58,966 nt of DNA, taken from the sequence record PV189406.1. One strand, 5' to 3'. Below, piece after piece: positions 18,001-24,000 of this stretch. Each line of letters begins with the position of its first letter. Position 1 is the stretch's first letter. A program made the position numbers. The DNA comes from Escherichia phage vB_EcoP_phi367.

Positions 18001-21000
18001 CGGAGGAAGTGGCGGTGCTAAAACACCTGGCACTGGCGCTAATGCCATTCAGCAGTCAGGCTCAGAACTGGAGACTGTGATTATGGAGTACGGCAAATAC
18101 GAAACACTTGCAAGATACTGGTTATACCGGAGCAGCCCGCCCTCAGGGGGACTGGCAGACATCCGCAGCGCTGACCCGCCAGCAATACGACGACTGGCGC
18201 ACCAGATATTTGCCCCGCGTGGCAAGGCTGGCTGACCTTGGTGAGAACAACAGCCTGATGAATGCACAGCTTGCACGGGTGGGAGGCCTTGCCACTTCCG
18301 GTCTCCGTACAGCGCAGATGGCGCAGGATAACCAGATGGCGAGATACGGGGTAAATCGTCCGGATAATCCCGACAGTAATACGCTGGGGTTACGTAATGC
18401 CCTGGCAATTGCTGGCGCGAAAAATGGTATCCGTGAAGCCGAACAGGATCGCCAGATGAACATACTGACGGGGGCTTCTGCACCTGCAAGACAACAACTG
18501 AGTGTTGGCGGTCAAATGATGACAGCGTAAGGGGGAAGATATGGGGTACGGCTTACTGGATATTGCGAATCAGTCACGGCGTGAGGCATTACAGGGAATA
18601 AGTGACGCAGACCGACGACGTGAAGAAATTGAGGCTGCGAACAAACAGATGGCGGCGCAACAGAAAGCGCAGAACAAGCAGAATATCGGTACGGGCATTG
18701 GTACGGGGGCGGCTATTGGCGCATCCGTTGGTGGTCCTGTTGGCGCTGTTGCTGGTGCAGTAATTGGCGGCATTGCTGGTTCTTTGTTTTAAGGAGTGGT
18801 GAATGAGCGGATTTGCACAGGGGTTACTTGCCGGATTCAGCACTGTTGACCAGGCAATGACCCGTCGTAAGGAGCTTGGTTTGCGAGAAGCACAGCTTGC
18901 TCAGCAACAGAAAAATAACGAGCGCGATTTTGAATTTGCGCAGTCTCAGTTTGAGCACCGATAAAGACGAATGATCAGCGGTACATATGATCTATAGATG
19001 TCAGGAAGTTGCTGACCGTGAATTATGCGCTGAAAGAGAGGGAACACAAAGCCAGCGCAGAATTATCGAAATGCGTCACTTGGGCTATCGTACAGCAGAC
19101 GACTGCAACTGGAAAAATACAACCAGCGACGGCTTGAGTATAACGATATGATTGCCCATAGCCAGCCACTAATGGAAGCGCTTGGAAAAGCAATTGAGGC
19201 TGGCGATCAGGAGGCTGCAACGCGTCTGTTCGGGCAGCTGCCAAAGGCCGACATCCATTAATTCTTATGTCAAACGGAAGGCTATGCTGCGAAGGCGGGT
19301 CAGGCCGTGAACAACCTGCAGAAAATCTTTGGTGATAAGCCGGACATGGCGATCGATTCGCTGAATACCCCGGAAAATCTCGATGTGCTTTCCGGCGTGT
19401 TTGCCCCGGAACTACAACAGCGTATTGGCATGCCTGATTCAACCGGGGAAAAAACGATAAAAGAGGCCAGGATTGGCAGTATCGTACCGGCGCAGCAGGA
19501 AGGGTACGTACTTATTGGCCTTGATCTCACATACAGCGATGGCTCCACCGCGCATAAACCTGTAACAGAATACGGCAGTGCGCACCCTGATGATCAAACC
19601 GTGCTGGCGATACCCGTTGATAAGGCTATCGCTCAGGTCAGGGATCGCAGCAAATTTGCAGAGATATCGAAAAATTATGGTTATTTTATGCCGAAGCAGC
19701 AGGGACTTTCTCTGAAAGAGCTTCAGAAGGGGGCCAGCAACGTAGCGGCGGACGCGATCAAGAATGGCGGTAATGCACAGGCTGCGGTGGATGAATATTA
19801 TGCTGCGACTGGTTCACAACCGCATCAACAGAAAATTCAGCAACAAAAACTTCAGCAACAGGTTATCAACTGGGCGGGAGATGATCCTGATAAGCTGTCA
19901 TTTGCCAGAAATGTAGCGGCCCGTCAGCCTGAAATGCTGGAGCCTCAGAATCAGAAATTGCTGGAGAACGGGTATGCGAATTTTCTCCGTATTCAAAAGG
20001 CCAGGGGGGAACAGGCCAGAGATGAAAGTGCTTCATCTGCATCTCAGTTTATCCGTGGACTGAAACAGAATTACGCCCAGTAATTCACGATATTCCATTA
20101 ACACCATTTCCTGATGCCCGGCCATTGTGCCGGGTTTTTTTATGGAGTCTGTATGGCCTATTCAGAGGAACAGCGTCCTGAGGCGCAACTCGGTAACCAG
20201 AATCGTAACAGCCTGAACATTCAGCAACCCGGCGAAACTGACAGCTATGAAGCATTTTTCTCTGATTCAAATCGCTGGAAGGATAACAGTACGTCGTTCA
20301 GCCTGGGCGATGTATTGCCAACAATGGGTAAAGGTTTCGCCCAGTCCGTCCGGGGAACAGGGGAAATGGCCCGTGGACTCGGTGATGCGATGATTCAGAG
20401 CCCGGTAAAAACAGGGGCGCGTATTTTAAATGAGTTCAGCCGTATGGGGCTGCCGGGTGTCGCAACTGTGCAGGATATTTTTGCCGGTGGCAGCAGGGGG
20501 GCTGATGAGGTCATCGATACCCTGCCTGATGGCAAAAACGCGGTGACAGATACTGTCGGTAAAGGTCTGAAGGTCACCGGTAAGGCTGTCAGTGACGGCG
20601 CTAAATCCTCGGATGAATGGCTGACCGAGTAAGATGTCGCCGGGTGCTGTGCGTGCGCTGAATACGCCAATGAGTGAAGGCTATGATGATCCTGCGGTCT
20701 GGGTGGCGAAGGGCGATAAACCTTGATTGGTGCCCTTGTACCTGATATGGTTGCTGGCGGTGTGGCTAAAAAGGTGGGTGATGTCACACTGCGAAAAATG
20801 CTGACCGCCGGGCTGGAGAAAAAATACATCGCGGCAGGGATGCAGCCGGAAAGAGCCACGGCACTGGCAGCAGAAGCTGTCGATAAAAAAATGCCGGATT
20901 TATTCCAGGCGGGCCTGATCACCCATTCCACAGCCAGTGCACAGGGGCAGAGTGCAATGGCGGCAGCAGATGCTGTTCTTAATGCGGATTACTCTGAGCT

Positions 21001-24000
21001 GGCGCAGTCACCGAAATTTCAGCAGACGTTTTTGTCCATTGACGCCGACCCGCAGCACGCACAGCTGACTGATCGCCAGAAAATGGATCTGGCAAAAGAG
21101 CGTGTTGCCGATGAGGTGCGCGCGCAGCTGGCAACCGATCCTGAATTGCTGGCTGTGAATGCCATGGCGGCAAAACTGGGTGACGCACAACTGTTTAATC
21201 TGGTGACACGAGGCACAGCGAAGACCGTTAAAAGCGGCATTGATCAGAAATGCCACGGAACAGGGGGCGATTAATGCGGCGCAGGGCGGCTATTCACGCT
21301 ATCAGGAAAACATGGCACTGCGTGATACCGCCGGAATGGATGTGTCACCGTGGGAGGGCGTGGCTGACGCAACGATCGAAGGTGGTAGCTCTTGGTGCTG
21401 CGATGGGGGCACCATTCGGTGCGGTTGCCGGATATCGTGGCAGACGTCAGGCGGCAGATGAAGCCGCCATGCGTGAGGCTGAAGTCGTACAGCAGGACGA
21501 CGCAGCCCCGCAACCAGAATCTGTTGATCTGGTGGCGCAGCATCGTGAATCCATGCAGGGGATGAATCGCGAGCAGCTTCTGGAGCAGTATGCTGATGCG
21601 GATATGGCGACAGAGGGTGACGCATCCGCAACTCATCGCCGGGAAGCCGCCAGCCAGCTGTTGAATGAACTGGACGAACAGGCGAAGCGACAGGCTGTGA
21701 TGAATGAGCTGAAGGCGAAGCCGCGTTCTGAACTGCTTGAGGAATACCGAAAACTCAGCCTGAAGGAAGGGCGTACTGATACTGAAGAGCAGCAGTTACA
21801 GGCTATCCGTGATGTGCATTCGCCCTCAGCAGGAAGTGCCAGACCGGAGGCACAGCCACAGCCGGAAAATGCGGAGGATGGTAACGGGAGCATTTACCCG
21901 ACGGTGCGGTTCCGGGACCCGAATGAAGTCCGCATTGAAATTAACGGGAATGGTGCGTCCAGACCAGCGGAACGCATTGAAAAGGTGCGCCCGGACAACC
22001 GTTATTTCACGGATGAGAAAAGCGCCATGGGGAGTGATGTTTTCCGTAATGCCGCCGCCACCGGCCTGAAACCGTCCGTAGTGAAGAAAGGCGAGAATCA
22101 ATATGCTGTTGAAATGGATAATCCTGCGTTCTCTGAAGATGTGGCAACGGAAACCATTAACACCCTGGCTGACGGAGAGCGTATTGCTGATGCTGACCCG
22201 ATGGAGCAGCCCGCGTTCATGCGTGACCCACGATTCCGTGGTTTCACGGGGGATGATACGGAGGTACAGGCCCGCCTTGCCCGTGGCAACGTGCCGACGG
22301 CAGAGGAGCTTGTACGTTCACAGATGGCTGAAGGTGATGCCGGTCCGACAGCACAGGAGTTAACTGAGCGTCCACGCCTGCCCGCTCCCGGCGATATTCA
22401 TCCCGGACAGGGATATCCGTTACCGGGAGAGGTGGCGCGTACGCCGGATGAGAATCAGGCAGGACGTGGTGGTCGTTTTACCACAACCGGTGAGGTTAAG
22501 GGCCAGAGTTTCCAGAAAGGACAAGCTCCGGCACCGGAAAACGCCGCTGGTCGCCAGGGGGAAACACTGGAGGGTGAACTGGTTCGTCGTGGTCTGCCGT
22601 CACCGGATGCGCAGAACGCGACAGCACCGGTACGTGAAGGGCTACCGGCTCCTGACATTGCGCGTAATGTTCGTATGCCTCAGCCTGAATCACTTCCCCG
22701 CACTGTACGGGACTCACTGCCTGAGCTTGCACAGCAGGCAGAAGTACGCCGACAGGCCGGAGGAAATCGTGACATCCCGCAGCCTGAGACAATCGCACCT
22801 GAATCTGAAACAACTGTCTCTACTGACAGGGAAGCTACCGTGCGCGGAGGTGAAGTCAGGGGCAAAAAAATTGAAGACTTTGGCGAGGAAATTAAAGGGG
22901 CAGCCAAACACCGTTATGCACAGCTTGCTGAAACACTGGGTAAAACGCTGGAAGACAGGGATTATGCCACGCAGCCGCTGAGCAAACTGTTCCCGAAACC
23001 GGACTACGCAAAACTGGCGAGCGAAGGGGCTGATGCTGACACCCTGGCAATGATAGCGCTGTATCGTAGCGATATTCCGGTGAAGACGAAACACAATACG
23101 GCAGGCTGGGGGGAGAGCGTAAAAAAAGTACGACACAGTGTATCGGAAATGCTGAACGGAACGGTCAGCGCGAAACGCCTCGCAGAATGGATGGAAGGCA
23201 GAATGCCCTCCCGTTACGCGGACACCTGGCAACTGTTACGCACTCTGCCACCCTCACAGATGGACAAGGCTTCTGCTTATCGGGTGGTATCGGGTGTGTA
23301 TCAGGCGGCAGGAGGGAAGCGTTACGATCCGCCACAGAAACTTTATTCACTGCGCAATAAGGACAATAAGGGGAGTAACCTCTTTTTCTCGGAAAGCAGG
23401 GATGAATTACTGGCAAAGGCGAAAGTCTGGTTTGCAGAGCAGGAGGAAAAATCACAGGCGAAAGGTGATGAAAAAACAGCACCGTCTCCGGATGACAAAA
23501 TCCGCTTTGACGTTTACCGGAATACCCGCAGTGGCGATATTTTTATCGCTTACGGTAAAAACAAAATGCGGGTGAGAGGTGGCTTTAAGTCAGCCAGTGA
23601 TGCGCGTAAGTACATTGATTTACATCGTGATGAGCTTGTTCGTCATGTGAAGGAGATGCGGGAGATTTCGCGTGAGGAGCAGCGCAACGCCACCAACCGC
23701 GACCGTACCGGACCAGAACGCCGCAAGGGGGATGTTTCACCGGAGCAGTTCAGTGATGCGTTTGGTTTTCGTGGTGTGCAGTTTGGTAATTATGTGGAAA
23801 GTCCGCGTCGTCAGGCTGATTTGAACCGGGCTTATGACTCGCTGCATGACCTTGCGGAAGTACTGAATGTACCGACAAAAGCGCTTTCTCTGAACGGTCG
23901 TCTTGGCCTGGCATTTGGTGCCCGTGGTAAGGGTAAGGCGGCGGCACACTATGAGTCAGGTGAGGTGGCAATCAACCTGACAAAAGGTAACGGACCGGGT

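Follow-up and report, generated by a model that had tools for sequence, protein, structure and literature searches.

We have analysed the 58,966-nt sequence of Escherichia phage vB_EcoP_phi367 (henceforth, phi367; record PV189406.1), referred to below as the window, in which protein-coding sequence passes through several reading frames immediately upstream of a giant open reading frame (ORF) of 2430 amino acids (aa). With a probability that we put at roughly 0.86, these frame switches are a consensus artefact in which two related phage haplotypes were merged, splitting an ordinary, intact gene. There are four switches, which go back to five frame-breaking single bases at ~20627-29, 20714-16, 20721-24, 21243 and 21384-86. 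The variants with the extra base are unique to the phi367 record in comparisons with phage, E. coli, IMG/VR, GTDB and protein collections, and the extra bases match alleles of a second haplotype found amongst the relatives. Unless stated otherwise, coordinates are those of the window, and the ORFs, gene fragments and extra bases described lie on the plus strand.

The Giant Gene and Its True Extent

The ORFs recognised in a preliminary description of this DNA, 20634-20726 (frame 0), 20723-21274 (frame 2), 21240-21461 (frame 0) and 21250-28542 (frame 1, 2430 aa), are indeed present. Upon comparison of the three forward frames with the homologue in VT2-Sakai (orf71; BAA84354, 2806 aa), their translations prove to be successive, collinear pieces of one protein that is intact in the relatives; this collinearity is far beyond chance. 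The preliminary description let the coding stretch begin at ATG 20634 and counted three frame switches. These three exist, but the ATG encodes a Met inside the intact protein, and the piece upstream of it had been missed: ORF 20114-20632 (fragment 1: frame 2, 172 aa, MPGHCAG...DEWLT) constitutes the true N-terminus of the giant gene, collinear with Sakai residues 1-171, which brings a fourth switch at 20627-20629. Its start at 20114 is equivalent to the start of Sakai orf71, while the Prokaryotic Genome Annotation Pipeline (PGAP) starts the giant gene at Met14, equivalent to window position 20153, and the protein family profile phrog_616 also begins at residue 14.

Downstream of this N-terminal piece follow fragment 2 (20634-20726, frame 0; …LTGKMSPGAVRALNTPM…VWVAKG), fragment 3 (20723-21274, frame 2; LIGALVPDMVAGG…TAKTVKSGI), which is out of frame after 21243, and fragment 4 (21240-21461, frame 0; (V/I)RNATEQGAINAAQGGYSRYQEN…ADATIEG), which is out of frame after ~21385. 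The remainder of the giant gene (21385-28542, frame 1) carries the LPD5, LPD1, MuF_C and LPD38 domains, with Pfam scores of 152.8, 83.8, 64.2 and 165.7 bits, respectively, against gathering cut-offs of 27-27.6 bits. The first 45 codons of ORF 21250-28542 are equally out of frame, and homology sets in from residue 46 (~21385). The discarded tails on either side of the junctions are thus out-of-frame translations, as had been surmised. Coverage of phrog_616 (2793 positions) is divided accordingly between profile positions 1-507 and 410-2793, the latter aligning to residues 46-2430 of the large frame.

Deletion of the five frame-breaking bases yields one ORF, 20114-28542, for a protein of 2807 aa if ATG 20114 is the start, or of 2794 aa if translation begins with Met14 (20153). 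Identity of the 2807-aa protein to Sakai orf71 amounts to 96.8% over residues 1-2806, and the LPD5/LPD1/MuF_C/LPD38 domains are the same. The earlier proposal that single-base edits would join the pieces is borne out, although the product is longer than the ~2630 aa then estimated.

Searches with the window matched 185 phage records and 425 complete genomes of E. coli, the matches belonging to short-tailed phages of the Shiga toxin (Stx) type (Sepvirinae, Traversvirus). The region is annotated in the matching phage and E. coli records as a single “LPD38/LPD5 domain-containing protein”, and the best match in the phage collection is 97-98.7% identical to the window. Judged by its sequence, the underlying gene is a member of the already known family of large polyvalent virion/ejection proteins of short-tailed Stx-type phages. 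The class of large polyvalent proteins and its domain families have been described (Iyer et al. 2017, PMC5512222), and the orthologue gp47 of phage phi24B (2811 aa) was found by proteomics to be abundant in virions and proposed to be an ejection protein (bioRxiv 10.64898/2026.04.10.717836). The phi367 gene also shares the position of the polyvalent protein gene of Stx phages, between the orf70 homologue and the integrase end. The difference is confined to the deposited sequence, in which the first 1.75 kb of the gene contain five extra bases that break the frame and three that together preserve it.

The initial 49 residues of ORF 21250-28542 (21250-21396), which are out of frame, match another profile, phrog_22242 (104 positions, E = 4.7e-24). 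This family appears to derive from overlapping ORFs that were called spuriously in Stx phage records with excessive annotation.

Extra Bases at the Junctions

We located the extra bases by alignment with Sakai, with phi315 (PV189403), the closest relative of phi367, and with one E. coli prophage. At the first junction (20627-20629), which leads from frame 2 to frame 0, the window has GACCG-A-GTAAG where relatives read GACCGGTAAG or GACCAGTAAG, i.e., both alleles stand in series. Two extra bases occur at the second junction (20714-20724, frame 0 to frame 2), where the window reads GGGCG[A]TAAACCT[T]GATTGG and the relatives L028, L030 and those of the Sakai type read GGGCGTAAACCTGATTGG; the preliminary description had rightly seen a shift at ~20720, and the bases concerned are at ~20714-16 and 20721-24. 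The A at 21243 is the fourth extra base and takes frame 2 into frame 0; here the window sequence, CATTGATCAG, is the union of CATTG-TCAG and CATGA-TCAG. The fifth is located at 21384-21386 (frame 0 to frame 1), with GGTGGTAGCTCTTGG in the window, GGTGGTACTCTTGG in L028 and GGTGCAGCCCTTGG in phi315, in agreement with the junction at ~21385 proposed before. Three more extra bases, one at 21816 and two at 21839-43, are together in frame and alter about eight codons (21816-21843); they match the alleles of L028 and L051.

The third junction had been attributed to a run of five Gs (G5). The extra A (ATTG[A]TCAG) is situated some 20 nt upstream of that run (21262-21266), in which the alignments revealed no difference in length; an exact-flank search found G5 in all 16 relatives retrieved, and two of the relatives displayed carry substitutions inside the run.

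The repaired and the deposited sequences predict different peptides. Those spanning the repaired junctions include SSDEWLT[D/G]K, G[I/V]NLIGALVPDMVAGGVAK and DTAGMDVSPWEGVADATIEG…LGAAMGAPFGAVAGYR, while the predicted frameshifted tails are …VAKGDKP, …QKCHGTGGD and …GGSSWCCDGGTIR. Mass-spectrometry data for phi367 virions are deposited at PRIDE (PXD061229).

The Junctions in Related Loci

For a systematic comparison, 48 related IMG/VR loci were fetched, so that 44-50 loci were comparable per junction. The alignment to intact homologues that the preliminary description had called for shows the window to be the longer sequence at every junction: by 1 nt over all 50 comparable loci at 20627-29; by 2 nt over 49 of 50 at 20714-24 (phi315 differs there by 1 nt and has a frameshift of its own); by 1 nt over all 44 loci that span 21243; and over 49 of 49 at 21384-86 (48 by 1 nt, one by 2 nt). 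The in-frame triplet at 21816-43 likewise makes the window 3 nt longer than each of the 47 loci spanning it. At least 28 loci possess an uninterrupted frame of ~2800-2812 codons that begins at the same start. Homologues split in the same way would have spoken for genuine gene boundaries; the relatives are, on the contrary, uninterrupted.

Exact searches agree with the alignments. A 26-mer with the insertion at 21243 had no match in IMG/VR or in GTDB (one genome per species), and the corresponding 25-mer lacking the extra base occurs in 32 IMG/VR contigs. None of the fragment proteins was found by exact look-up in a collection of 15 billion proteins.

The giant gene is shortened in some relatives, to 1072 codons in L037, 2358 in L039, 652 in L040, and 296 in both L052 and L053; these short frames may reflect natural truncation, the insertion of an insertion sequence (IS) element or assembly errors. 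In phi315 (L002/L004), the giant gene (19835-28255 in that record) is also split, over three annotated coding sequences (CDSs). Its breaks consist of a 1-nt indel equivalent to window position ~20721 and an A5 versus A6 run equivalent to window position 23471, and they look like record errors too.

Insertions between 13 and 22 kb

The extra bases in the giant gene belong to a wider pattern. The window and phi315 are 99.9% identical and gap-free over 1-10028, and gap-free or almost so across most of the alignable sequence from 22 to 59 kb, whereas dozens of single-base insertions relative to phi315 lie between 13.2 and 21.9 kb. When the window from 9.9 to 30 kb was compared in 300-nt bins with the nearest relative for each bin, 41 inserted bases, one deleted base and 82 mismatches were counted, all between 12.9 and 21.9 kb; the other bins are 98-100% identical to some relative, nearly all of them 100%, and devoid of indels. 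Only three of 42 insertions reside in runs of three or more identical bases, and in 28 of the 42, the inserted base is no copy of a neighbour. Neither natural indels nor the usual homopolymer errors would be expected to give such a spectrum.

Some 33 further extra single bases of the second-allele type, spread over 13177-19277, break the structural genes upstream, including tail-fibre genes and the orf70 homologue. The genes affected are the homologues of the phi315 CDSs 11533-13233, 13230-14498 (tail fibre), 17164-17817 and 17820-18266 and of orf70 (18539-19804), all in phi315 coordinates. Of the orf70 homologue, only a 258-aa piece is still open (window 19307-20083).

Homopolymer or nanopore-type errors were considered as the source and discarded, given the three in 42 extra bases in runs of three or more and the unchanged length of the G5 run. 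The contexts of the insertions, inspected by eye for a link with Dam or Dcm motifs, presented no consistent motif.

A Probable Merger of Two Haplotypes in the Consensus

At almost every insertion site, the aligned relatives form two haplotype classes, and the window reads as their union. We removed the extra bases from the window, aligned all relatives and asked of each inserted base whether it is the allele that a relative has directly next to it, at a position in which relative and window disagree. Between 13.1 and 14.4 kb, 10 of 13 inserted bases match L028/L051 (1.3 expected), and none of 2000 randomisations reaches 10. Between 17.3 and 19.4 kb, the count is 15 of 20, with phi315, L028 and L015 tied (about 1 expected; p = 2e-16), and between 20.45 and 21.95 kb, it is six of eight for L051 (0.33 expected; p = 1e-7), all eight being explained by at least one relative; for these last two regions, the significance was computed from an analytic null. 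L003 spans only part of 17.3-19.4 kb, and a three-way comparison including it is uninformative there.

The substitutions tell of the same two sources. Of the variable sites between 20100 and 22000, 52 have the L028 allele in the window and 86 that of phi315; the two interchange at a fine scale, and there is one private substitution as compared to eight private extra bases. Private substitutions are nearly absent from the whole of 13.1-21.9 kb. Such a fine-scale mosaic of phi315-like and L028/L051-like sequence is seen in 20100-22000 as well as in 13000-14500, implying that the phi367 stock or read set contained two related podophages. The second podophage of the mixture lacks a separate description.

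This accords with the history of the record. Phi367 was sequenced only by multiplexed nanopore sequencing using a Flongle flow cell, and several assemblies were possible (PMC12502783). Its authors suspected a mixture of related phages in the preparation, with the risk of chimeras, and completed the genome from an alignment of contigs with Sanger amplicons that cross the contig borders (PMC12502783). Exact matches to the window were obtained for the eight published phi367 primers, which form four convergent pairs that delimit 22438-23720, 33887-38800, 41216-43104 and 49394-50374. The first of these is the S95/S96 amplicon that bridges a contig border (22438-23720, unstranded). The last extra base (21843) is found just upstream of this junction; downstream of it, L028 is still 4-20% divergent, and there are no extra bases.

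We propose that the consensus from 13.1 to 21.9 kb merges a phi315/Sakai-like haplotype with one resembling the IMG/VR loci L028 and L051. The two alleles of a single-nucleotide polymorphism would have been written one after the other, by which a substitution becomes a one-base insertion; staggered alignment gaps followed by a gap-ignoring consensus could have kept both alleles. Five such bases within the initial 1.3 kb of the giant gene would suffice to cut a single ORF of ~2807 codons into five ORFs. Phi367 resembles known mixed-strain consensus artefacts in its insertion-only indels at polymorphic sites, in the switching between alleles at a fine scale, in the confinement to one contig segment and in the mixed preparation. 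The usual nanopore artefacts are errors in homopolymer length or at methylation motifs, whereas the extra bases of phi367 lie outside homopolymers and equal the second allele. The suggestion of base-calling errors in the preliminary description was correct insofar as an error is concerned; what the evidence supports is a mixed-haplotype consensus rather than homopolymer or base-calling noise.

Several points weigh against the merging of two haplotypes. Gap placement is ambiguous, and with an alternative placement, the best score for 20.45-21.95 kb falls to four of eight (p = 4e-5). An exact 17-mer test, in which the inserted base replaces its neighbour in some relative, was mostly negative; the second haplotype has divergent flanks as well, which misleads such a test, and support for both alleles in series came from the alignment-based test. 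The few relatives with a truncated giant gene illustrate that truncated forms can arise naturally. That the phage DNA lacks the extra bases is inferred rather than observed at the level of reads, and the gap-ignoring merge as the responsible software step is conjecture.

Alternative Explanations

The foremost alternative is that the extra bases are generic sequence errors, from a low-coverage nanopore consensus or poor ends of Sanger reads, and that no haplotypes were merged. The record does derive from multiplexed nanopore reads with Sanger patches, its sister record phi315 has frameshifts of its own in the giant gene, one of them in the A5/A6 run, and at most sites, exact k-mers gave no indication of both alleles. 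Errors of this kind would, however, mix insertions with deletions and be enriched in homopolymers, contrary to the 41 to 1 excess of insertions and their scarcity in runs. Random bases would, moreover, match the adjacent allele of the second haplotype about once per region, not in 10 of 13, 15 of 20 and six of eight cases. We consider this explanation unlikely.

Somewhat less credence still is due to real mutations, with the giant gene, the tail-fibre genes and orf70 decaying as pseudogenes in a defective element, a possibility raised in the preliminary description. Truncated copies in some prophage relatives (open frames of 296, 652 and 1072 codons) are in line with decay. Phi367 is, nevertheless, not defective: it forms plaques at 1.8e11 plaque-forming units (PFU)/mL, has normal podovirus morphology and infects in a BamA-dependent manner, infection being blocked by BamA (PMC12502783). 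At least 40 frameshifts in tail-fibre and virion genes do not fit a plaque-forming phage of normal morphology. In the repaired frame, the ratio of non-synonymous to synonymous polymorphism (pN/pS) over the N-terminal 411 codons is 0.23-0.25 in comparison with close relatives; the substitutions are therefore those of a functional gene and not of one under relaxed selection. The predominance of insertions, almost none of them in homopolymers, departs from the natural indel spectrum, in which deletions would be no rarer than insertions and slippage in repeats would be seen, and a decaying gene would not be expected to combine eight private insertions with a single private substitution over 20.1-22 kb. 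No known mutational process produces inserted bases that mirror the alleles of a second haplotype, and none of the inserted bases is common to any other record. Decay of the gene is, consequently, very unlikely.

Were the extra bases truly present in the phage that plaques at 1e11 PFU/mL, either ~420 N-terminal residues of the giant protein and parts of the tail fibres would be dispensable or made in pieces, or several +1 recoding events would occur. We regard this as highly improbable.

Programmed ribosomal frameshifting, another of the options originally put forward, would have to operate by a +1 shift at each junction, twice at 20714-24, to give the full-length protein. Its sole support is that the coding signal continues across frames, in which phi367 resembles the -1 programmed frameshift of lambda G/GT, likewise in the structural module of a tailed phage. 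Phi367 differs from the lambda system in that it has neither a conserved two-frame arrangement nor a slippery site, the direction and the number of the shifts are wrong and the homologues are continuous. The 44-50 relatives at each junction specify identical residues in a single frame, except for the 1-nt shift of phi315 at 20714-24. Direct reading of the sequence revealed neither an X_XXY_YYZ nor a prfB-like motif at the junctions, nor a homopolymer at the true shift sites. Efficient +1 shifting five times in succession within 760 nt would be without precedent, and extra bases of this type also occur scattered through five other genes. Since homologues are continuous at every junction, programmed frameshifting is ruled out. 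The homologues also rule out a set of independent short genes (30, 183 and 73 aa), each with a start of its own, that would lie upstream of a gene of 2430 aa. ORFs beginning with ATG or TTG can be called mechanically, but in all relatives, these starts fall within the coding sequence of one continuous protein, phrog_616 spans all the pieces, and the fragment proteins are found nowhere else.

Consequences for the phi367 Record

The merging of two related haplotypes would have implications beyond the giant gene. As deposited, the phi367 genome appears to be a chimeric consensus that includes ~41 spurious bases at 13-22 kb, which would break at least six structural genes and inflate the numbers of CDSs and hypothetical proteins. 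Table 2 of the original report (PMC12502783) gives 109 CDSs and 67 hypothetical proteins for phi367, the highest counts amongst its seven podophages. As it stands, the record is misleading for comparative genomics, proteomics databases and the discovery of frameshifting, and it needs re-polishing or a strain-resolved re-assembly. The test for both alleles in series detects consensus errors from mixed haplotypes without recourse to reads and can be reused elsewhere.

The window carries no stx gene, and its integrase is common to phi315, both consistent with the published description (PMC12502783). Upstream of the region with insertions, a 243-nt tandem repeat (2.5 copies, 98% matching) occurs at 9675-10271, within a tail-fibre gene with collagen-like Gly-X-Y sequence (8403-10667). 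The window has one copy of this repeat more than phi315, which results in a 243-nt offset between the two sequences; the extra copy could be a real copy-number variation or an effect of long-read assembly.

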